From Burkholderiales bacterium (GTDB lineage: Bacteria > Pseudomonadota > Gammaproteobacteria > Burkholderiales > Burkholderiaceae_C): a DNA stretch of 64,000 nucleotides. Positions 31,213 to 40,586 of the stretch are shown in pieces (the first letter of the stretch is position 1; each line of letters opens with the position of its first letter). The DNA is taken from the NCBI GenBank assembly GCA_038208175.1, contig JBBQZA010000001.1:4984-68983 (forward strand). Reading direction: 5' to 3'. Made by a program: the position numbers and the translations under genes. Under the pieces are notes generated by a model. The model ran no database searches, had not been told where the DNA came from, and saw nothing but the letters and a program-made list of their open reading frames with translations.

Positions 31213-32106
31213 ATGAAGATTCAACTGCTGTCCGATCTGCACCTTGAGGTTCATCCGCATTGGGTGGCCACCCCTGCAGCGCAAGCCGATCTGCTGGTTT
31301 TGGCCGGCGACATCGGTTCCTATCAAGCAGGCTCACAATTGGCGGATCAGGACTTTGGCCTGTCGCGCTTTTCGCCCAAGCATGGTTGGCCCACACCGGT
31401 GTTGTTTGTACCCGGCAATCACGAATACGATGCTCAGGACTTTGATCTGGCCCATGCCCGCTTGTTTGAGACCTGCGAGCGACTCGGCATTGGCTGGCTG
31501 GAGCGGGAAGTCATAACCTTCCCGGCCAGAGATGGCAAGCCGGTTCGTTTTATTGGCACGACCTTGTGGAGCGACTTTGACGCCCTTGGCCCAGCCGCGA
31601 ACGCAGTCGAGACCGGCACTGTGGCGCTGTTGACGCAACAACTCAAAGCGCGCGACAAGGCATTTCGGGCAGCCAACTATTACCTGAAAAAAACCGGCAC
31701 CTTGCGCCATGGCCAGCCGATGCTGGCAGAACAGGTGCGCGAACAGGCTTTGGCGTGCCAGGAGTGGCTGGCGAAGGCATTGCTTGAACCGTTCGACGGC
31801 AGCACCGTGGTGGTGACGCATTTCGCACCCAGCCTGATGAGTGCCGACCCACGCTACGGGCTGACGCCGGGCAGTGCCGGATTCTGCAACGCCCTGGATG
31901 CGTTGCTGGCGCAGGCCCAGTTTTGGCTGCATGGTCACCTGCATGCACCCAGCAACTACATCCACGGCGGCTGTCGTGTCATTGCCAATCCTTTGGGCTA
32001 TGCCCGAAAGAACGAACAAAATGCTTTTCAGGCAACGCTCTGCATTGATCTCTGTCGCCGGCAACAGCTACACCAGGAAAATGCTGGCTTACCTGGTCGC
32101 GCATGA
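31213..32106 (+). CDS. Calcineurin-like metallophosphoesterase
   Basis: SDLHLE, LAGDI, GNHEY, VTHFAP, HGHLH; the last ~17 aa run into the usp gene. Confidence 0.88.
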   Translation: MKIQLLSDLHLEVHPHWVATPAAQADLLVLAGDIGSYQAGSQLADQDFGLSRFSPKHGWPTPVLFVPGNHEYDAQDFDLAHARLFETCERLGIGWLEREVITFPARDGKPVRFIGTTLWSDFDALGPAANAVETGTVALLTQQLKARDKAFRAANYYLKKTGTLRHGQPMLAEQVREQALACQEWLAKALLEPFDGSTVVVTHFAPSLMSADPRYGLTPGSAGFCNALDALLAQAQFWLHGHLHAPSNYIHGGCRVIANPLGYARKNEQNAFQATLCIDLCRRQQLHQENAGLPGRA

Positions 32107-32458
32107 TGAATTGTTTGCGCAGGGCCACGACTACACGGTGTTCACGGTCCAGCCACAGTTGCCAGCGCGGGCACGGGCGGCTGTCGGCAAGGAAGTGGTC
32201 AACCAATACCATGCCGATGAAGCGGAAAAAATATTGGCACCGGTGACCAAGTTTTTGCTGCGCCATGGCATTGACGCCAACAGCAACTGGAAGGTCGGCC
32301 ACGCCGGTGAGAGCATCTCCAAACTGGCCGAAAGCGGCGGCTTCGATCTGGTGATCATGGGCTCGCACGGCCACAGCACGCTGTTCAACCTGGTGATGGG
32401 CTCGGTCGCGACCCAGGTGCTGGCGCATTGCAGGGTGCCGGTGCTGCTGGTGCGCTGA
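32045..32458 (+). CDS. Universal stress protein, 5' end apparently eroded
   Basis: SYTRKMLAYL, DLVIMGSHG, GSVATQVLAHCRVPVLLVR; expected MKILLAVDG start is replaced by LISVAG (TTG 32045). Confidence 0.75.
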   Translation: MISVAGNSYTRKMLAYLVAHDELFAQGHDYTVFTVQPQLPARARAAVGKEVVNQYHADEAEKILAPVTKFLLRHGIDANSNWKVGHAGESISKLAESGGFDLVIMGSHGHSTLFNLVMGSVATQVLAHCRVPVLLVR

Positions 32459-32542
32459 GCGCCGGTTGGAGCGACACATCGGCACCCGCCGCCGATCAGC
32501 GCAATCGTCATCGACGCGCGCAGGCAAGGTTGACAGCGCGCG

Positions 32543-32602
32543 TTACAACGTTGGCGGTCACCGGGGAGCCGAAGGCGAGTCCAGTGGACCAACCGGTTAG
32601 CC
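32543..32602 (-). other. attC site (60 bp)
   Basis: Minus strand GGCTAAC-CGGTT-GGTCCAC...GTGACC-GCCAAC-GTTGTAA; extra base in L''; DUF2442 stop codon lies inside R''. Confidence 0.8.
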
Positions 32603-32854
32603 AGCTGCGCCCGAGACCAGCGGGAATGCCGCCGGATTACGTATGGACTGAACCGACAAGTCGACGTCCAACCCCGGCCAATAAAGATGGTCAGGGGTAG
32701 GCCACTGAACTTCTGATATTTGCTCAATCGTGGCCTTTCGAAACCAAGGGAATTGGTCGAAGGGTACGAGCAGTTCTTCATCGGAAAGCAGAAGCCAGAA
32801 ACCATGCTTCGACACGTGGGTGACTTCAGCCGCCGAAATGGTGGGTCCAGGCAT
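32597..32854 (-). CDS. DUF2442-family protein (putative TA partner)
   Basis: EVTHVSKHGFWLLL...VPF..FPWF...WP.LDVDL. Confidence 0.8.
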   Translation of the reverse strand: MPGPTISAAEVTHVSKHGFWLLLSDEELLVPFDQFPWFRKATIEQISEVQWPTPDHLYWPGLDVDLSVQSIRNPAAFPLVSGAAG

Positions 32855-33065
32855 CTTGGATCTCCTTTAAGTGCGCGTTCACAACTGCTTGCGCTTGACG
32901 AATTTGCGTCGCGGAAAGACCAGTATGGTTAGCCAACGTCACTTGCGGAAGAAGCCAGAACTTGGCCTCGCCGTCTGCATGCGCAACATGCACGTGAACG
33001 CGCGTCTCTTCGCGAGAAAAGAAGAAGAGGCGAAACTGACCGTCACGAACAATGGTTGGCGCCAT
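32826..33065 (-). CDS. DUF4160-family protein (putative TA partner)
   Basis: MAPTIVRDGQFRLFFFSREE.R.HVHV....GEAKFWL. Confidence 0.85.
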   Translation of the reverse strand: MAPTIVRDGQFRLFFFSREETRVHVHVAHADGEAKFWLLPQVTLANHTGLSATQIRQAQAVVNAHLKEIQDAWTHHFGG

Positions 33066-33101
33066 GTCGGTACTGTAACCAACTTTCGCTCCAGCAGGCT
33101 A

Positions 33102-33625
33102 ATCGGGATAGGAAGAAGCCTCACGGCCCCTCCCTCCCACACCACCGTGCGTACGGGTCACGTACACGGCGGTTCGGCAGATTGAGTCAGCATGCATCAA
33201 CACATTGTGCCAAATTGACACATTGAATCTGCGCATGACAACCGGAGCATCATTTCTGACCGCGCCAACCACGCGTTCACCCCAGCCCGCAGACTCACGC
33301 CCACAGGACTCGCCGGGTGCAGTCGCATCATTCCTTGGCAAGTGATTTCCCCTCTCTTTCAATCCCCTCTCGGGGCACCGTTCGGGCCTTTGGAAAACCC
33401 TTTGTGGCTCGGCGCCTTGGCTGGTCCACTACGCCCTCTGCTGACTTCTGTGCTGCGGTCAAGGCCGGTTTCCCGTCCTTCCGTCGTTGCCGCTTTCGCG
33501 TTGGCGACACAGGGCAGATCTCCCGTGGTAAGACACGAATCCTTCCTCGCATAGACGCCGGATTTACAAAATGCAGCCCATTTGCAGATGGAGGGCTTGG
33601 TGGTCACGTGCCCACTGGCCCCGGT
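33102..33625 (-). mobile_element. Group II intron, class IIC, ORF-less and 5'-truncated, inserted at an attC core site
   Basis: Minus strand: domain V GAACCGCCGTGTACGTGACCCGTACGCACGGTGGTGT (33175-33139), domain VI ending CTATCCCGAT at 33102; upstream class-C-like segments TCTTACCACGGGAGATCTG and AGAAGTCAGCAGAGGGCGTAGT; no RT motifs; 3' exon TAGCC. Confidence 0.85.
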
Positions 33626-33724
33626 GCCATGCAAAACCAGCACCCGAACCCGCGGCCGCTGGAACGCGCGGCAATCCGGCAACTGCTGCAAGATGCGTTT
33701 GAGGGAGTGCGGGCGAGGGAGTGA
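33626..33724 (+). pseudogene. C-terminal remnant of maleylacetate-reductase-like (Fe-ADH family) gene, copy 1
   Basis: AMQNQHPNPRPLERAAIRQLLQDAFEGVRARE resembles the NPYxNPRPxERxAIRxLLQxAxEG C-terminus of maleylacetate reductases. Confidence 0.6.
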
Positions 33725-33741
33725 TGAGCGTGTCGACAGCC

Positions 33742-34221
33742 CTACAAGCGTGCCTGACCAGCGGCTCGCTTGAGCAACATGACACGGTTAGTCGCGAACC
33801 AATCGCCAACTTTTTCCAGGAAAGGTGCCGCAATTGCGATTCCCTCTTCTACTTCATCGACCTCCACCTTGAAAGCGGCGCGGTACTTGCGGTTTCTCCA
33901 ATCGCGCAGGGTGTCCAATTCATCGAACTGATGTTGCGTGAGCCCGACCGCTTGGGCCGCGCCCTCGAGTACCACCGCATGGTGCCCCTTTTCGCTTCCA
34001 GCTCGATACCCTTGGGCGCATGCAACGGCCAGACAGCAAAAAAGAACGGCGTCATAGGCCGCGTCCATACGGGTGGCTGGTGACACCGCCTTCATCCTCG
34101 CGTCTTTGAGCTTGATTTGCGCCTGCTGCAGCCAGGACATCACGTCTGGGCCATTAGCCGGCTGCTCGCGTAGCGGCGAGCCCGGCTCAGCGCTCAGTTT
34201 CTGAAATGACTGCAGCATCAA
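33742..34221 (-). CDS. HEPN-domain protein (MNT-HEPN TA partner)
   Basis: AYDAVL, GHHAVV, LRDWRNRKY; overlaps the MNT gene end. Confidence 0.7.
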   Translation of the reverse strand: MMLQSFQKLSAEPGSPLREQPANGPDVMSWLQQAQIKLKDARMKAVSPATRMDAAYDAVLFCCLAVACAQGYRAGSEKGHHAVVLEGAAQAVGLTQHQFDELDTLRDWRNRKYRAAFKVEVDEVEEGIAIAAPFLEKVGDWFATNRVMLLKRAAGQARL

Positions 34222-34786
34222 AATCCCCTATCAATGCGATCTTCGGGCCGCGCACGATTTCGCCTGCAAAACTCTCCCTAGCCTGGATCTGATTTCGAAA
34301 ACCTTTGATGGTACTGACGGATGCATGGACTGGGCGCCCGAGCTTGCGGCCAACAGGTTTGAGAAGGGTGTTGAGCTTCAACTCAGAGACGTTGCCGAGC
34401 GCGAGCACATCGATGTCGCTGTCGGCGTTTTCATCGCCGCGTGCAATGGAGCCAAAGAGGAGCGCAACCTGGACGCCTTCCACGCCATCGAGAAAGTCGC
34501 GAAGGGCATGGACCAACGCGCTGTCTTGCTGCATCAGCGTGACCAAGGGTGCCAAAGAAGTGTCCTTGCTCGCGTAGTACCGAGGCAGCCCGTCTTTTTG
34601 TACCCGCTGCACGAGTCCCGCCTCCGTCCACCGTTTCAGTAGGCGGGAGACGTTCCCGGGGTCTATGCCGGCTGCTTTGGCCAGTTCCCGTTGGCCGAAA
34701 CCTCGACCTGGCTCAGAAAAAATCGCACGCAATGCCTTGTACCGGTCGGCGCTTCCGAAGATCTCAGTGAGAGTGGCTTGGTTCAT
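34187..34786 (-). CDS. Minimal nucleotidyltransferase with N-terminal HTH (MNT antitoxin)
   Basis: LFGSIARG...DSDIDVL; N-terminal GQRELAKAAGIDPGNVSRLL HTH. Confidence 0.85.
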   Translation of the reverse strand: MNQATLTEIFGSADRYKALRAIFSEPGRGFGQRELAKAAGIDPGNVSRLLKRWTEAGLVQRVQKDGLPRYYASKDTSLAPLVTLMQQDSALVHALRDFLDGVEGVQVALLFGSIARGDENADSDIDVLALGNVSELKLNTLLKPVGRKLGRPVHASVSTIKGFRNQIQARESFAGEIVRGPKIALIGDFDAAVISETER

Positions 34787-34806
34787 GTATGGATGCTGTC
34801 GAATTG

Positions 34807-34866
34807 GCTACATTGTAGCTAAATCAACTACAAATATGCAATAACTACTACGATGTAGTTGATTTA
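34807..34866. promoter_or_regulatory. Operator-like repeats upstream of MNT: GCTACA-T-TGTAGC (34807-34819) and TAAATCAACTACA-N21-TGTAGTTGATTTA (34820-34866)
   Basis: Perfect inverted repeats seen in an AT-rich region 21 bp upstream of the HTH-MNT start. Confidence 0.65.
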
Positions 34867-34946
34867 ACATCGGCGCCGCGACTGGTCCAGCGCAAACATC
34901 CGAACATGGTCCGGGTTGATGATTCGGCTGGCCTGATTCAGGCAAT

Positions 34947-35040
34947 GGCGACATTGCACTGTAGAACCGATACCCTGATCTGCGGCCACTGGAACGTGCG
35001 GCAATCCGGCAACTGCTGCAGGATGCGTTTGAGGGGGATG
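34947..35040 (+). pseudogene. C-terminal remnant of maleylacetate-reductase-like gene, copy 2
   Basis: GDIAL*NRYPDLRPLERAAIRQLLQDAFEGD; 50/53 nt identical to copy 1 over 34983-35035. Confidence 0.6.
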
Positions 35041-35118
35041 CGGCCTTGGGGGTGAAGAGCGGGTGGGAAGGGCTTCAACGAGCCCATGGCGGTCGTCGCG
35101 GGCTTTGGAAAGCGGACT

Positions 35119-35216
35119 GCTCAACGTTCCGGTTGAGCAGCGCGCCGAGCGCGATGCGAGCGCCGCTGAGAAGCGTCCGGCGCGTCTGCCTCAAACATGG
35201 CTTCGCACGATCTAAC
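35119..35216 (-). other. Degenerate attC (35119-35206) plus isolated R' core GTTAGAT (35210-35216)
   Basis: Arms GTTGAGCAGCGCGCCG / CGGCGCGTCTGCCTCAAAC; one core (GTTGAGC) intact, the other decayed. Confidence 0.5.
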
Positions 35217-35393
35217 CTTGTCGGAACGGATAGCGCGCAAGCAAGGCTTCCATCATTCTCCGCCCAATACCCTTCCGCTGAAAATTAGGATGCACTAGCA
35301 GATGCGGAAAGTACACGACCACCCGTTCCCTCTGTAAATAGCGAGGACTTCTTCTGCGTCGACGTTGTCGGAAAGAGAAATGTTCGCATCCAT
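35212..35393 (-). pseudogene. GNAT acetyltransferase cassette remnant (internal deletion, truncated)
   Basis: MDANISLSDNVDAEEVLAIYRGNGWS, then in another frame VYFPHLLVHPNFQRKGIGRRMMEALLARY (GNAT motif A). Confidence 0.7.
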
Positions 35394-35408
35394 GGCAGCG
35401 ATTGGGAG

Positions 35409-35472
35409 GTCTAACGTTGGAGCTACGCGGCGACGCGCTTGCGCGGCGTCCGGCTTGAGCGCGCAGTTATAC
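35409..35472 (-). other. attC site (64 bp)
   Basis: Minus strand GTATAAC-TGCGC-GCTCAAG...CGTAGC-TCCAAC-GTTAGAC. Confidence 0.85.
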
Positions 35473-35746
35473 GTGCCGGCCCGTCCACAAGGCGACCCGA
35501 AACATATTTGTGAAGCACACTGGCCATCAATGTTTGGTATGGCAGCCCCTCTGCTGCCGCTTTGGCCTGGAGCCCCTCAAGATCAATTGCCGAAATGCGG
35601 ATGTTCACACGCCTATTCTTAAGCAATGTTTCGGCCGCCGCTTCGCGATAGCGATCCATTTCCTTTTTCAGATTCTTTATAGGTTCCCATTCGCCTTTTT
35701 CAAACGAGCGCAGGACTTCCGCTTCGTACTCTTTATCACTCTTCAT
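35423..35746 (-). CDS. CopG/BrnA-like antitoxin
   Basis: KNRRVNIRISAIDLEGLQAKAAAEGLPYQTLMASVLHKYV ribbon-helix-helix; ORF runs into the attC. Confidence 0.82.
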   Translation of the reverse strand: MKSDKEYEAEVLRSFEKGEWEPIKNLKKEMDRYREAAAETLLKNRRVNIRISAIDLEGLQAKAAAEGLPYQTLMASVLHKYVSGRLVDGPARITARSSRTPRKRVAA

Positions 35747-36029
35747 CGCTAACCTCGCTTAGAAATCGCTTCGTCGCTTTGCGACTAGGCATGATTGTCT
35801 TAAGGAATATTTCATCTTCTGACTCGACCAACGGGACCAGGTGGGCGTAGGCTCGGACCTTCACCACCCAAATTCTCTGGTTCGGATACTTTCGCTGATT
35901 GGGATGGTCTAAAACAGTCAGTAGACCGCCCTGCTCAATGCTCGAGAGGATCTCCTCAAACGAAACGCCTCGCTCTTGCATGAGTTCGATATTCTTCTCA
36001 GGGTTCCAGCGAATCGGCTTTTTTTGCAT
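35736..36029 (-). CDS. BrnT-like toxin
   Basis: WNPEKN..L..ERGVSFEE, HPNQ.KYP.Q, VP.VE...EIFLKTI.PSRKAT. Confidence 0.82.
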   Translation of the reverse strand: MQKKPIRWNPEKNIELMQERGVSFEEILSSIEQGGLLTVLDHPNQRKYPNQRIWVVKVRAYAHLVPLVESEDEIFLKTIMPSRKATKRFLSEVSDEE

Positions 36030-36038
36030 CTAGGCAGC

Positions 36039-36068
36039 ATTATACCGCCGTGTGCCGTATGTGCTCAA
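36039..36068 (-). promoter_or_regulatory. Sigma70-like promoter TTGAGC-N18-TATAAT for the BrnT/BrnA-like pair
   Basis: Perfect -10 hexamer 9 bp upstream of the toxin ATG. Confidence 0.6.
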
Positions 36069-36074
36069 TTGTAT

Positions 36075-36577
36075 ATCGAGTCGGGGCGTGTCGCGCTCGG
36101 CGTCATGGAAGGCGCGGTCATGGAGCATCAGTTGGGCCTGGTGGAAGGCCCTTGCTGGCTGGAAGCGAGTAGCGCGGTACTGAACTTGGCGCATACGGTG
36201 GATGCGGTGGCTGAAACCGAAGTCTGCCTGCGACAGGTGCCGCTGGCCGAATTTCACCGTTCGCTGGCCCGCATGTCAGGGTCGGCCCAAGTCGTGTTCC
36301 ATGACATGGCGCTGGCACATCGCCAGCAGACCGAGTTCGCCGTCAGTCGCCTCGCCAAGGACGCCGAGGCGCGCTGTGCCGAGTGGTTGCTGCGTCATGC
36401 CGAAACCGGTGACGAGGGCGTGATGGCAGTGTTGCTGCAGCGGCGCAACTCGGCATTGCCCCTGAAACCCTGTCCCGCGTGCTGCGCCATCTGCGTGAGC
36501 GCTGCCTGATCAGCGGCTCCGGGCGCACCTTGAATGTGGTTGACCCGGGCGGCTTGCGCACGCTGGCCGGGTTTTAA
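36075..36577 (+). pseudogene. Crp/Fnr family regulator remnant (5'-truncated, frameshifted)
   Basis: EGPCWLE, AEARCAEWLL, then in another frame LGIAPETLSRVLRHLRERCLISG (Crp HTH). Confidence 0.75.
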
Positions 36578-36733
36578 GGGTGGACTGATTGCGGTCCATC
36601 ACCCGCTCCACTTTCTGTCTGTTTGACAGGATACATGCCGGACGCTTGCGATCAGAAAATTCAAGAATAGAGCAAAGACCGGCAAGAAAACGACATACCC
36701 TGTCGTTGACACCCACCCTGCAAACTCCTGCGC

Positions 36734-36792
36734 ACGTTACATTAGAGTTAAGCGGGCGGCTGCAAGCCAGTCCGACTTGAACGACGTTAGGC
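36734..36792 (-). other. attC site (59 bp), R' core degenerate
   Basis: Minus strand GCCTAAC-GTC-GTTCAAG...CTTAAC-TCTAAT-GTAACGT. Confidence 0.7.
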
Positions 36793-37536
36793 GTCTTCCG
36801 CTTTGCTGTGCCGACTGAGGAAGTCTTTTGCTTCATGAACGAGTCGCTCCTGTAGTTTGGCATGTTTCACATTTGGCGAAGGTTGCTCCAGCATTCGTTT
36901 TACCGAATAGCGGGCGGGGCGCAGTGTCGGTTTGTGTCCATTGAAGTACAGGCTCCAGAGCGACGAGTAGAGGCGAGCAAGAAAGACTAGGATCTGTCGC
37001 AACTCCTTGAGATTTGTCTTGGCGAACAGCTCACCCACTTCTTCGCGCGTAGTGACGCCACGATGGGCAAATACCTTGTGGCGACACGGGCGGTATTTCT
37101 CTTCGTAGAGCTTTCGCCTAACTGTGACGTGCCGCTTCAAGTTTCGGAAATCTTCTCGCGATGGCACATACACCGTCGCAAGATACTCGGGTAGCCATTC
37201 TTCTGCGTTCGCGCTGAGCTTGCGCTTTCGGTTGGCCAGTGCGTCTTTGGAGAAAATGTCGAGATTCGCATGTGCCAGCGCCAAGAGTCGCGTGACGCTG
37301 TAGTTGCTCTGATCGGGGTCGAAGATTCGCCCTAGTGCCACAAGTGCAGAGGCCTGAAGCGCACCGAGCGCAGTATTCCAGAACAGTGGTGCCTCATTGA
37401 GCATGCGGAAGACCGCCTTGTCTTTGGCCGCGACGGCGTGTACTGCATCCCATGCGAAGAAAAACTGCAGCGCGCTCTCCGCCTCGGTACGAAATAGCTC
37501 TAGCTGTCTCTCGAAGTCTGCGGACGGCGATGGCAT
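36787..37536 (-). CDS. HEPN AbiU2-like cassette protein (249 aa)
   Basis: LGRIFD, RHKVFAH (RxxxxH-type motif); cassette core GTTAGGCGT is the exact 9-bp complement of its own R'' ACGCCTAAC. Confidence 0.65.
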   Translation of the reverse strand: MPSPSADFERQLELFRTEAESALQFFFAWDAVHAVAAKDKAVFRMLNEAPLFWNTALGALQASALVALGRIFDPDQSNYSVTRLLALAHANLDIFSKDALANRKRKLSANAEEWLPEYLATVYVPSREDFRNLKRHVTVRRKLYEEKYRPCRHKVFAHRGVTTREEVGELFAKTNLKELRQILVFLARLYSSLWSLYFNGHKPTLRPARYSVKRMLEQPSPNVKHAKLQERLVHEAKDFLSRHSKAEDA

Positions 37537-37548
37537 GAGCGTAGAGAC

Positions 37549-37614
37549 GCCTAACGTAGAGGTCACCGGCGGAGCACCGCAGGCGCGAAGTCCGCGTGAA
37601 CCGTAGGGTTGGCA
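37549..37614 (-). other. attC site (66 bp)
   Basis: Minus strand TGCCAAC-CCTAC-GGTTCAC...GTGACC-TCTAC-GTTAGGC; canonical 5-bp spacers and extra base in L''. Confidence 0.9.
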
Positions 37615-38156
37615 CCGGCCAGCGCTTGCCATGCGGCATGTATGTGTTCATAGAGTGCAAGGAGTTGATCGACTCTAGGGCGCGAAGCCGTGTTTGGAAT
37701 GTTCGTCGCATCGATGTGCTCGACTGAACCAACGACAACCGAAGGGACATCGTAGTTCTCTTTGAGCGACTCCTTCGTCCATTTGGGCGTCGGGTACCTT
37801 CCGGCCCAGACAACATATCGTTCGGCGTGAAGCATCAGTTGTTCTTGTTCGGCGCTCAAAAACCCAGCTCCGCAGAGAACGATGACATCGTGACGGTAGA
37901 TGTCTTCTCGCGGCCCTGCATTACTTCTAAGGTAGTAGGCTTTGGCGATTAACTCCAAGGCCAGCGATGCGAGGAACTCTGCCGTCGGAAGCAGCATGAT
38001 GCTCTGAAACGTGGGGGATTCAATTGCAGCGTCGAAATCGCTCAGAAGCTGCTTTGAGGAGACGAGAAATTGCCTGGACTTGAATTCCCAGGTGTCATGA
38101 TCGAACGCAGCGGCGTCGCCGTCGGCTCGCCAACTGATAGAAGTGCCTGGCTGCAT
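37563..38156 (-). CDS. Hypothetical cassette protein, possibly HEPN-fold
   Basis: LALELIAKAY...HDVIVLC and WAGRYP resemble HEPN-like helical proteins; ORF ends inside the attC. Confidence 0.55.
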   Translation of the reverse strand: MQPGTSISWRADGDAAAFDHDTWEFKSRQFLVSSKQLLSDFDAAIESPTFQSIMLLPTAEFLASLALELIAKAYYLRSNAGPREDIYRHDVIVLCGAGFLSAEQEQLMLHAERYVVWAGRYPTPKWTKESLKENYDVPSVVVGSVEHIDATNIPNTASRPRVDQLLALYEHIHAAWQALAGANPTVHADFAPAVLRR

Positions 38157-38163
38157 ATGAGGG

Positions 38164-38253
38164 GCCTAATCGATTAGAGCTAACCGGCGCTGCGCGGCTT
38201 TATCGCGCAGCGTCCAGCGACCGAAGGGAGCGAGGTTGAGCGCCATGGTAGGT
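38164..38253 (-). other. attC site (90 bp), both cores mutated
   Basis: Plus strand GCCTAAT...GAGCTAACCGGCGCTGCGCGGCTTTATCGCGCAGCGTCC...GGTTGAGCGCCATGGTAGGT; cores read ATTAGGC and ACCTACC on minus. Confidence 0.65.
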
Positions 38254-38272
38254 CGGTCAGTGCGCATGGCAG

Positions 38273-38776
38273 TCATTTGCCTTCCAATAGCTTTCTTTTC
38301 TGAGCTTCAAATTCGGCTTCAGTCAGAATTCCGCGCTTGCGGAGGTCGTCGAGCTTGATGAGTTCGGCGTAGACGTCTTTGGGGCGGTCAGTTTGATCCT
38401 TGGTTTTCACGTCCGAAGTAATCTTCTCGGTCTTCTCAATAACGACATCTGCTCTTGGCACAAGGGACGTTCTGCGAACCTCTGGGTCGTTCTTGTCGAC
38501 GACCCTGAATTGGTATTCGAATGACGCCCATTGAGCAGGGCCGTTGCCCATGGGCTTCTCTTTCGAGGAGAGCGGAATTGCAACCTTGCCTTGACTCTCT
38601 GCGAAGGCATTTGCATCGTTGATGACACCTGCCTTCAACGCACTCGTGCTCGCAAATATGCCGCCGTGTGCTTCTCTTGACAGCATGTATGTATCAGGGG
38701 AGAGCTTAACGATGCCTGGATTCGCGCAACCAGACAAAGCGGCGATGCTCAAACAGAATGCCAGTGTGTTTCGCAT
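38273..38776 (-). CDS. Lipoprotein with C-terminal SHOCT domain (cassette)
   Basis: Lipobox LSGC; C-terminal ELIKLDDLRKRGILTEAEFEAQKRKLL. Confidence 0.85.
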   Translation of the reverse strand: MRNTLAFCLSIAALSGCANPGIVKLSPDTYMLSREAHGGIFASTSALKAGVINDANAFAESQGKVAIPLSSKEKPMGNGPAQWASFEYQFRVVDKNDPEVRRTSLVPRADVVIEKTEKITSDVKTKDQTDRPKDVYAELIKLDDLRKRGILTEAEFEAQKRKLLEGK

Positions 38777-38808
38777 GAATTCTCCAAGGAGGTGGGATTG
38801 AAAGCGAG

Positions 38809-38892
38809 ACCTAACGATCAGCGTTTATCTGCCGAGAGGCAAAGCTGGAAGAAACCAAGAGCGCCTCCTTCGGCAGATAAACCACGTTGGAC
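38809..38892 (-). other. attC-like site (84 bp), near-identical to 39492-39575
   Basis: GTCCAAC...GTTAGGT ends; 12-bp arms GTTTATCTGCCG/CGGCAGATAAAC; atypical spacers. Confidence 0.75.
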
Positions 38893-39043
38893 TGAACCGC
38901 CGGCACAGCGGTTGACTTACAGGGGACTGTAAGTTTGAAGCGGATGAAGCGGGACAGTTTTGAGCACAGTGCTGGGCTGACTGCGGCTGTGTGTGATGCG
39001 TGCACGGCAGCCACCGAGTCGCATGATGCGTTTACCCCCTGCA

Positions 39044-39484
39044 TCATCGGCGCGCACCTTGAACGCCGCGTGCATGTTTTGTGGGCGTGATGTGGCGGGG
39101 AGGAAAGTACCACCAGGCGGCCACGACGAGCAAGCCGAACAGCGTGTATGCGAGGGTAAACGCCCAGAACGGAGCCTCGTAGTAGAGCAGACGTTGAACC
39201 CAGTGTTCGATGAAGCCGTGCTCGTACGCAGGCTGTGCGCACTGTACGCGAAGCCATGATTCGAGTGTGGTGAGTGGGCAGAGTTTGCCGAGCCAGGACT
39301 GTGCGACGACGACGCCGATTGCGGCAAGGTGAGCGAGGCGGAACCAGATGTTGTTGACCCAACGCCAAGAGCGGAGGTTGCCTACGATGACCATGAACAG
39401 GCCGCCGACAACGAACACGACGACTGCGAAGTGCAGAAGAAGCACCGCATCAGCCAGTAGCTGATACGGCAGAGACGGTTGCAT
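39044..39484 (-). CDS. DUF2784-family membrane protein (cassette)
   Basis: LADAVLLLHF..V.FVVGG, FRLAHL, CPLTTLE.WLR, FIEHWVQRLLYY. Confidence 0.85.
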   Translation of the reverse strand: MQPSLPYQLLADAVLLLHFAVVVFVVGGLFMVIVGNLRSWRWVNNIWFRLAHLAAIGVVVAQSWLGKLCPLTTLESWLRVQCAQPAYEHGFIEHWVQRLLYYEAPFWAFTLAYTLFGLLVVAAWWYFPPRHITPTKHARGVQGARR

Positions 39485-39491
39485 TTGCGGC

Positions 39492-39575
39492 GCCTAACGA
39501 TTAGCGTTTATCTGCCGCGAGGCAAAGCTGGAAGAAACCATGATCGCCTCCTTCGGCAGATAAACCTTGTTGGAC
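39492..39575 (-). other. attC-like site (84 bp), first of the array
   Basis: GTCCAAC...GTTAGGC; DUF2784 ATG lies 7 bp after the core. Confidence 0.75.
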
Positions 39576-39677: not shown

Positions 39678-40586
39678 TTACGCCAGTGCCGTGGCGGCGG
39701 CCGCAGTCAAAGCAGCGGTCAGCGCGTCCAGCACGACCGAGTCGAGCTTCCAGCAATGCCAGAACAGCTCAACCGGCAGCGTCTGACCGGGCGCAATATT
39801 GACCAGGCGGCCGTCGCGCAGATAGTCCCTGACCTGCAGCTCGGGCACCACCGTCACGCCCCAACCGGCCATCACGGCGCGCACCTGGCCCTCTGAACTG
39901 GGTACGTACAACTGGCTTAGCGCGACGTGCTTGAGCCCGAACGCGGAGCCAATGAACTCGGCCTGCAAATCGTCCTTGCGGTTGAACGCGATGAACGGCA
40001 TGCTGCGAAAGTTGTAAGGCGTCAGACCGTCGGGGCAATGCTCTGCGGCATAAGCGGATTGCGCCACCGCAACGTAGCGCATCGCCCCCAGCGGCACCAT
40101 CTTGCAACTGCGCAAGGCCTGTTTGAGTGTGGTCACGCAACCCAGCACCTGCCCCTCACGCAACCACTCAATGGTGAAATCCTGGTCGTCAGCAATGATC
40201 TCCAGCCCCAGGCCCTGGTGCGCCAACCGGCTCAGCGCCGGCAAGGCCCAAGTCGCAATACTGTCGGCATTGATGGCGATGGAAATCCGCTCGGCGTCCG
40301 CGTCTGAGCCCTTCGCACCCGGCGTCAGGTCATGCAGCTCGCGCTCCAGCTCGGCCCTGAGCAGCCGCATCTGCATCGCATGCTTGAGCAGCAGGCGACC
40401 GGCCGAGGTCGCCCGCAAGGGGCGACTGCGCACGATCAGGACGGTTCCCACCTGAGCTTCCAGCGCGCGCAAACGTTGCGACACCGCCGACTGGGTGATG
40501 GACAGACGCACTGCGGCCCGCTCGAACCCACCTTCCTCCAGGATGGCAGCCAGGCATTCCAGCGCATTGGCGTCGAATGTACTCAT
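39678..40586 (-). CDS. argP: LysR family regulator, ArgP/IciA type
   Basis: EEGGFERAA..L.ITQSAVSQR, IAINADS.ATW, LGAMRY, LFWHCW. Confidence 0.85.
   Translation of the reverse strand: MSTFDANALECLAAILEEGGFERAAVRLSITQSAVSQRLRALEAQVGTVLIVRSRPLRATSAGRLLLKHAMQMRLLRAELERELHDLTPGAKGSDADAERISIAINADSIATWALPALSRLAHQGLGLEIIADDQDFTIEWLREGQVLGCVTTLKQALRSCKMVPLGAMRYVAVAQSAYAAEHCPDGLTPYNFRSMPFIAFNRKDDLQAEFIGSAFGLKHVALSQLYVPSSEGQVRAVMAGWGVTVVPELQVRDYLRDGRLVNIAPGQTLPVELFWHCWKLDSVVLDALTAALTAAAATALA

Follow-up and report, generated by a model that had tools for sequence, protein, structure and literature searches.

A probable CALIN between usp and lysR of a betaproteobacterial genome, with two sites derived from the ends of an IS91-family element

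Between usp and lysR, two convergent genes in a metagenome-assembled genome (MAG) of a Burkholderiales bacterium (3.9 Mb in 430 contigs, 91.6% complete, 4.4% contamination), lies a block of about 7 kb (32543-39575) that, read on the minus strand, consists of short open reading frames (ORFs) parted by imperfect palindromes. All positions refer to the window, the whole stretch of 64,000 nt that was analysed, which lies within the 75.6-kb contig C1 (GCA_038208175.1, JBBQZA010000001.1). The G+C content of the interior of the block is 0.54-0.59 compared to about 0.60-0.65 in its flanks, and the junction with usp is spanned with zero mismatches by an independent Logan contig of a sediment metagenome (X1). 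The region is very probably a CALIN, that is, a decaying array of attC sites and gene cassettes without an integrase; the class goes back to Cury et al. 2016, who are said to have defined it by clustered attC sites in the absence of an integron-integrase, and IntegronFinder follows this definition. As a mixed-origin, decaying CALIN it belongs to a kind of element already well known: such arrays are common and IntegronFinder would report this one. Its unusual feature is that two of the eight recombination sites are hairpin ends of a transposon living inside integrons. The points added here are this origin, a pseudogene of intI on another contig of the assembly and the fact that relatives have an empty site.

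attC sites and cassettes between usp and lysR

The flanking core genes and the eight sites, with their scores in the covariance model R1 described below, are as follows.

32003..32458, plus strand: usp, universal stress protein, flanking core gene (Pfam Usp 7.5e-18)
32543..32602, minus strand: attC site H, the last site, R' GTTGTAA (26.6 bits, match 32542-32601)
35119..35206, minus strand: attC site G (33.2 bits)
35409..35472, minus strand: attC site F, canonical (41.0 bits)
36734..36792, minus strand: attC site D, R' degenerate, GTAACGT (20.8 bits, match 36736-36792)
37549..37614, minus strand: attC site E, canonical (41.6 bits, E 1e-7, match 37549-37613)
38164..38253, minus strand: attC site C, both cores degenerate, R'' ACCTACC and R' ATTAGGC (22.5 bits)
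38809..38892, minus strand: attC site B, the 3' boundary of the DUF2784 block (13.8 bits on the plus and 11.2 on the minus strand)
39492..39575, minus strand: attC site A, the first site of the array (13.2 bits, strand not decided by R1)
39678..40586, minus strand: lysR, LysR-type regulator, flanking core gene (Pfam HTH_1 and LysR_substrate; orthologue beside usp in same-genus genomes)

Since Rfam holds no attC family, we built R1 as an independent proxy from 17 cassette-bounding attC sites beside intact intI in five genomes (G043, G049, G054, G056 and G058) belonging to other families of the same order; no training site came from the genome under study. Its seeds go back to a TIGR02249 search of related genomes, 13 of 61 having a match above the curated cut-off, from which the DNA upstream of intact intI was used. 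A regular-expression attC finder, which returned many false positives, served only to choose seed sites beside intact intI. In the resulting alignment 85% of the R-box/L-box cells are paired, compared to 28-38% in slid controls, and 14 pairs are changed on both sides. The window was searched on both strands with filters off, and in the genome-wide search 150 of 3364 first-look candidates were scored.

The eight top matches of R1 in the window are exactly the eight attC-like sites that a sequence-only reading of this DNA had proposed. That reading had tied its fate in part to an attC covariance model, and R1 gives a score to all eight. Six of them (C-H), referred to here as canonical, reach 20.8-41.6 bits with E-values of 1e-7 to 1e-2, on the minus strand only and within 5.7 kb, while the best match outside the region scores 13.0 bits and covers the core boxes only. 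Genome-wide, nine matches were found at E<=1, six of these in the array. The alignments of the canonical sites cover the full model (positions 1-78), and the sites fit the R''/R' cores (RYYYAAC...GTTRRRY), the paired L boxes with an extrahelical base and the variable loop, with partly degenerate cores in C and D and a partly degenerate R'' in G. A CALIN calls for at least two nearby attC sites on one strand and no integron integrase within about 4 kb; the six canonical sites share one strand, and this distance is free of intI. Plain minimum-free-energy DNA folding was dropped as a site test in favour of the covariance model because it did not discriminate: E, F and H gave z of -0.4 to +0.5 relative to shuffled sequences, and only A, B and G folded better than shuffled.

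Site C is 87% identical to an attC beside intact intI in G056. The sites are otherwise heterogeneous: A and B are 92% identical, every other pair 48-68%. As only A and B are alike, the array holds seven attC sequence types, so that the heterogeneity previously read from the sequence stands and its count of at least four families becomes seven.

Complementarity of a cassette start to its own R'' is a trace of excision as a circle. In line with what had been claimed for the cassette cores, the start of the AbiU2 cassette, GTTAGGCGTC, is complementary to its own R'' region, GACGCCTAAC, at 10 of 10 positions, and the starts of the SHOCT and DUF4160/DUF2442 cassettes are complementary to theirs at 7 of 8 positions each; it was not found for the DUF2784 and GNAT blocks, both of which are hybrids. 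The earlier observation that ORFs end in or near the next core also holds, the stop codons of AbiU2 and DUF2442 lying inside R'' and those of the 197-aa ORF and the BrnA-like gene inside L'.

Traces of the same modules were found in other metagenomes. X1 contains 82% of the sampled words of the region. In three further metagenomes (X2, X3 and X4) homology to the DUF4160/DUF2442 cassette begins exactly at the cassette start, at 33102 or 33097, which is the G|TT crossover, and is preceded by ...CATCACG|TTAGCC or ...AACGTTGGGC. The BrnT/A-like block (35401-36073) occurs in a different context at 98% identity in X4, the SHOCT ORF has a 94%-identical copy in X3, and the DUF4160/DUF2442 and BrnT/A-like blocks were found at 89-98% identity in soil and salt-lake metagenomes. 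The inner core of site F (35411-35461) is common to several unrelated contigs in X1, X3 and X4, and contig depth at the core of site C is 800-1600 in X1 and X3 versus 5-30 for its flanks. The inner part of site C represents a very abundant attC family, with near-identical copies beside intact intI in two other families of the order. The presence of single modules in other contexts across metagenomes directly supports modular, recently mobile cassettes.

Like other CALINs, the array has at least two co-oriented attC sites bounding small, mostly promoterless cassettes, no nearby intI, and toxin-antitoxin (TA) cassettes; nothing essential sets it apart, although it is unusually eroded and broken by non-cassette DNA and by remnants of an intron and an insertion sequence (IS). 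With the sedentary chromosomal integrons of Vibrio, Xanthomonas and Pseudomonas stutzeri it shares the chromosomal location, cargo of unknown function and TA type, and invasion by IS and introns, whereas in those integrons intI and attI adjoin the array and the attC sites are largely uniform, and no such platform is present here. The attC heterogeneity resembles that of mobile integrons or mixed-origin arrays.

Sites A and B as ends of an IS91-family element

Site A is a solo 84-nt hairpin of the layout GTCCAAC-aag-60-nt stem-loop-gctaatc-GTTAGGC. Site A keeps the hairpin only, while site B (DNA fold z = -5.2) keeps the hairpin and about 180 nt of the 3' end of an IS, which was aligned with contigs C119, C327 and C392 of the same genome.

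38893..39066, minus strand: IS91-family 3' remnant, with a Y2-transposase fragment AFKVRADDAGGKRIMRLGG (~39010-39066), a right-end motif CAAACTTACAGTCCCCTGTAA (38917-38937) and a small hairpin

In both sites the arms are perfect for 12 bp, and the canonical attC geometry of 5- and 6-nt spacers and an extrahelical L-box base is absent, the spacers being 3 and 7 nt. This genome contains the pattern GTTTATCTGCCG...CGGCAGATAAAC at five places, and transposase fragments lie beside site B and at the start of C392. The further hairpins of the genome are at C119:946-1005, C327:532-591 and C392:440-499; those on C119 and C327 are solo modules beside ordinary genes, and a canonical attC was not found on either of these two contigs. 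Sites of the attC or hairpin kind are also borne by contigs C200 and C217.

The hairpin module shared by A and B is present in at least 117 public contigs assigned to Accumulibacter, Polaromonas, Rhodoferax, Gallionella, Nitrotoga and others. It is about 135 nt long and consists of CTTACAATCCCC, a small hairpin, GGTTCAGTCCAAC-aag and the 60-nt hairpin, followed by GCTATTC. GTT follows in 71 of 80 copies (L053-L132), and a full GTTRRRY in 40 of the 80, compared to a background of 0.0009 per position. At no fewer than 32 loci a gene for a transposase of about 400 aa with Zn_Tnp_IS91 and Y2_Tnp domains lies upstream of the hairpin. The distance is about 260 nt, and in many genomes this gene is itself preceded by a gene for a tyrosine recombinase of about 290 aa (Phage_int_SAM_4 and Phage_integrase). 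The left end, TTGAACTAAACCGC, was located about 2.35-2.6 kb upstream of the hairpin at ten loci, and at each junction read (L060, L069 and L095) it directly follows a different complete canonical attC. Hairpin stem variants track transposase divergence, and this joint variation shows the hairpin to be part of the IS91-family element. The element is 2.5 kb long, its tyrosine recombinase is IntI-like, it is bounded like an integron cassette, and many Betaproteobacteria have it in their cassette arrays.

Sites A and B are thus not ordinary cassette attC sites; they are the terminal hairpin module of an integron-parasitising IS91-family element. We had also considered them as the host's own homogeneous chromosomal-integron attC type, and rejected this since the module spans many genera and is tied to an IS91 transposase. 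The all-minus polarity previously assigned to the eight sites is confirmed by R1 for the six canonical ones; for A and B, where R1 does not decide the strand, it follows from context, because canonical attC sites near homologous hairpins in other genomes are co-oriented with them in 75 of 77 cases.

Compared to IS91-family elements with a tyrosine recombinase, sites A and B show the same hairpin that those elements carry about 260 nt downstream of the Zn_Tnp_IS91 and Y2_Tnp gene, but only the hairpin (A) or the hairpin with about 180 nt (B) is left. Classical IS91 targets GTTC or CTTG. The elements described here differ from it in their cassette-like bounds, with TTGAAC... on the left and the hairpin followed by GTT on the right. 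Literature searches on a link between IS91 and attC turned up only passing mentions. The recombinases of IS91 elements are reported to be the closest relatives of IntI (10.1101/542381), and in Shewanella an IS91-like element beside attC has been noted that 'yields a new gene cassette structure' (PMC9229058).

At five loci (L059, L067, L085, L094 and L105) a conserved sigma-70-like pair, TTGAC-N17-TACAAT, lies just inside the right end of the element. It points outward through the hairpin to the next cassette and may be an outward promoter. At L111 (5119-5179) and L115 (6295-6355) intI-less arrays begin with a symmetric variant of the hairpin, its two spacers each being 7 nt long; it directly adjoins housekeeping-type genes there and canonical attC sites occur only downstream, a layout that matches site A. 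It is conceivable, if rather improbable, that a solo hairpin such as site A acts as a landing pad to which IntI in trans or the element's own recombinase adds cassettes by attC x attC recombination. If true, such transposons would seed integrase-less arrays at non-integron loci, explaining the origin of some CALINs.

Decay, the missing integrase and the arrival of the array

Alongside the sites, the array contains an intron and several fragments.

33102..33482, minus (cassette) strand: ORF-less group II intron (RF00029 42.8 bits at 33102-33174, RF01998 36.9 bits at 33385-33482)
33613..33731, plus strand: gene-tail fragment copy 1 (...NPRPLERAAIRQLLQDAFEG), with copy 2 at 34943-35062
35119..35216, minus strand: mini-cassette without an ORF, in which attC site G follows a GTTAGAT core (35210-35216)
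35217..35408, minus strand: internally deleted remnant of a GNAT acetyltransferase gene (motif-A fragment matched by Pfam Acetyltransf_7 and Acetyltransf_1)
36076..36581, plus strand: Crp/Fnr-type regulator pseudogene, N-terminally truncated and frameshifted, a non-cassette insert (Pfam HTH_Crp_2 34.6 bits)

Decay, as claimed from the sequence at the outset, is borne out by the degenerate cores of C and D, the GNAT and Crp-type pseudogenes and the intron and IS remnants. In site C, ACCTACC and ATTAGGC replace ACCTAAC and GTTAGGC, while site D has GTAACGT at its end, where it meets about 660 bp of non-cassette DNA. The Crp/Fnr-type pseudogene is 75% identical in nucleotide sequence to a paralogue on contig C320. 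The GNAT fragments are fused to AAGGTTAGAT, a sequence that ends a C-type attC in other X1 contigs; these contigs join a C-type attC directly to it (joint 35219 to 38175). The two copies of the gene tail flank the MNT pair and were recognised as direct repeats, of family D1 (93 nt at 80% identity) and family D4. The 93-nt repeats, considered as 5' ends of group II introns on a weak RF02001 match (E 0.77), read on the plus strand as two diverged C-terminal gene tails, and the intron interpretation was rejected.

Both intron matches (RF00029 and RF01998) score above gathering. With its 3' end (33102) the intron runs straight up to where the DUF4160 cassette begins. In four metagenomes there are further intron copies, which diverge at 33099-33102. 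No ORF was found between domains I-III and domain V. The intron is probably 5'-truncated, without a defined 5' limit. As a small group II ribozyme at an attC/cassette core inside an array it resembles the group IIC-attC introns, but it lies on the cassette strand, has no reverse-transcriptase ORF and no recognisable 5' end, and therefore does not qualify as one; canonical IIC-attC introns are oriented opposite to cassette transcription (PMC7923331).

No integrase gene accompanies the array. A TIGR02249 search of the whole assembly gave zero matches on contig C1, as expected from the earlier failure to find intI on either side, and matches only on C339, C240 and C183. A complete integron would have an adjacent intI, attI and Pc, and the array is flanked by lysR and usp instead. 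The search for intI elsewhere that had been called for did find a locus, C339:1128-1892, the sole intI-like one of the assembly, but it is a pseudogene in three frames (two frameshifts), truncated at its 3' end and without a neighbouring attC, no R1 match having been found on C339 in the genome-wide search of 150 scored candidates. The match spans TIGR02249 positions 1-252 of 315, and since it stops there the C-terminal catalytic part is missing. Over its N-terminus the pseudogene shares 52-62% identity with intact IntI proteins from the same genus, in which at least three genomes carry intact genes. Judging by translations, we take its neighbours on C339:1-1892 to be a gene for an ABC-transporter ATPase and, at the edge of the contig, part of an ISL3-type transposase; the ABC-transporter neighbour was not found beside intI in relatives, so the location of intI is not conserved.

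At the usp-lysR spot, the two genes are 15-84 bp apart in eight same-genus genomes compared to 7.2 kb here. Other relatives have a gap of about 490-800 bp, one has 2.6 kb, and in G063 the gap reaches about 18 kb; the 490-800-bp fillers were considered as single cassettes and rejected, as no attC lies inside them. The spot is a recurrent insertion site, and the variation of the gap among relatives marks the array as a lineage-specific insertion in a variable spot. In the insert of G063 (L052, G063:C28:364000-383000), fragments of usp and lysR are duplicated; it also carries an IS3 transposase, part of a group II maturase, GGDEF and FeoB genes and one strong attC of 55.6 bits.

We infer both the construction of the array by IntI, from its anatomy, and its present static state. 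Cassettes would have been made and moved by integron-integrase recombination at G|TT cores. The array is now stranded, the integrase not being adjacent and the sole intI of the assembly being a pseudogene. It is undergoing erosion by point mutation of core sites, deletions and invasion; the invaders are the ORF-less group II intron at a cassette start and two IS91-family copies, since reduced to the attC-like terminal hairpins A and B. What remains of the cargo is mostly small stand-alone or two-gene modules of TA, HEPN or defence type, and any more cassette movement would require IntI in trans. The array is useful as a well-documented case of stranded-array decay, and illustrates how such an array can be marked by two parasites of integrons, here an intron of group II and an IS91-family element that mimics attC.

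Several points weigh against the reading as a CALIN assembled and stranded in this way. R1 stands proxy for the attC model of IntegronFinder and derives from 17 sites only. The scores of A and B are only 13-14 bits, with ambiguous strand; their spacers of 3 and 7 nt are atypical, and the first 12 bp lack an extrahelical base. About one third of the region, made up of the intron, the Crp fragment and the gene-tail copies on either side of the MNT pair, lacks an attC of its own, and parts of the block may for this reason have come by other routes. The exact insertion junctions are not recoverable from empty sites, the spacers being unalignable and relatives about 75% identical in the flanks. As the MAG is incomplete, an intact intI could be in its missing part or on an unbinned plasmid. 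In the cargo, the BrnT/A assignment, the HEPN assignment of the 197-aa protein and the TA nature of DUF4160/DUF2442 are weakly supported.

The alternative that survives best concerns the arrival of the block and leaves its nature untouched: it may be foreign DNA that already carried cassettes when homologous recombination at a variable hot spot, or rolling-circle (one-ended) transposition of the IS91-family kind, brought it in, instead of being assembled here by IntI. We regard this as a real possibility, albeit not the likelier course. The usp-lysR spacer varies across the genus, up to the large G063 insert, non-cassette fragments are embedded in the array, and the array opens with an IS91-element hairpin right at the chromosomal flank, just as the intI-less arrays L111 and L115 begin with a hairpin beside core genes. 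However, hairpin A is wrongly oriented for the downstream cassettes to be its read-through cargo, since the IS body would be on the lysR side; neither a transposase nor a recombinase gene is left here, and the insertion junctions could not be resolved.

It is considerably less probable that the array is still active, a working reserve whose cassettes are shuffled by a functional IntI located in the missing 8% of the genome, on a plasmid or in a neighbour. Four of the eight sites (E, F, A and B) do keep a consensus-like R'' with intact AAC and a GTTRRRY R', A and B being only putative IntI substrates, near-identical DUF4160/DUF2442 and BrnT/A-like blocks and attC cores occur in the source sample and in other metagenomes, and intact IntI genes are present in the genus. 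Against this, the only intI of the assembly is a pseudogene, the cleavage triplet is mutated in several cores (ATT in site C, GTA in site D), and no excision joint of the array's own cassettes was seen in source-sample contigs, which show rare forms poorly. That the sites are chance palindromes, repeats resembling repetitive extragenic palindromes (REP) or terminators between small genes can practically be dismissed: plain folding of E, F and H and the silence of an Rfam search agree with it, the latter in a database without an attC family, but it is already contradicted by the R1 E-values of six clustered sites, the likeness of site C to an attC beside intact intI, the complementarity of cassette starts to their own R'' and the metagenome homology that begins at a cassette start.

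Cargo of the array

The sequence-only reading had seen a lean of the cargo towards TA, HEPN and defence-type genes. This tendency holds, in part on weak assignments. Modules of TA type in integrons can drive their expression from promoters of their own, and they tend to have a stabilising effect on arrays.

32597..33101, minus strand: DUF4160/DUF2442 cassette (DUF4160 at 32826-33065, Pfam 3e-14; DUF2442 at 32597-32854, Pfam 4e-16)
33742-34221, minus strand: partner of HTH-MNT (PADLOC PDC-M05B 174 bits); no attC follows the pair
34187-34786, minus strand: HTH-MNT nucleotidyltransferase (PADLOC PDC-M05A 246 bits; Pfam NTP_transf_2 and MarR_2 in the pair)
35423-35746, minus strand: BrnA/CopG-like gene (Pfam 20.4 bits, below the gathering score of 28)
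35736-36029, minus strand: BrnT-like gene (Pfam 25.2 bits, below the gathering score of 34.5)
36787..37536, minus strand: AbiU2-type HEPN cassette ORF (Pfam HEPN_AbiU2 2e-31)
37563..38156, minus strand: 197-aa cassette ORF of an uncharacterised family (fifty homologues, all hypothetical)
38273..38776, minus strand: lipoprotein-like cassette ORF with a C-terminal SHOCT domain (Pfam SHOCT 4.9e-8)
39044..39484, minus strand: DUF2784 membrane-protein ORF, its 3' end running into the IS remnant (Pfam DUF2784 2.8e-32, residues 8-128 of 146)

Apart from weak MntA-like matches, NCBIfam gave no names to the cargo proteins. The block 35423..36029 bears a faint resemblance to BrnT/BrnA, in its two-gene architecture only: BrnT_toxin reaches 25.2 of the required 34.5 bits and BrnA_antitoxin 17.1 of 26.1, which leaves the pair outside both families. 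The 197-aa protein has no match in Pfam, NCBIfam or PADLOC. Its AlphaFold2 model (pLDDT 87) finds HEPN proteins as best PDB folds (1ufb, 1wol, 2hsb and 7bxo) at weak E-values of 0.02-0.3, and the predicted fold is probably HEPN-like. A HEPN/MNT system (type VII TA) would combine a nucleotidyltransferase antitoxin with a HEPN toxin bearing an Rx4-6H motif; in the MNT pair (33742-34786) the MNT domain is present, and the partner matches PDC-M05B strongly and no HEPN family of Pfam. PDC-M05 is a candidate system of PADLOC. The array illustrates that defence and TA cassettes circulate among environmental Betaproteobacteria, and for phage-defence testing the 197-aa family and the PDC-M05 pair offer inexpensive candidates. 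The leader of the HTH-MNT gene (34790-34880) contains long AT-rich palindromes (gttaaatcaactacatcgtagtagtt... and tagttgatttagctacaatgtagc), which look like an operator for autoregulation by the HTH domain.

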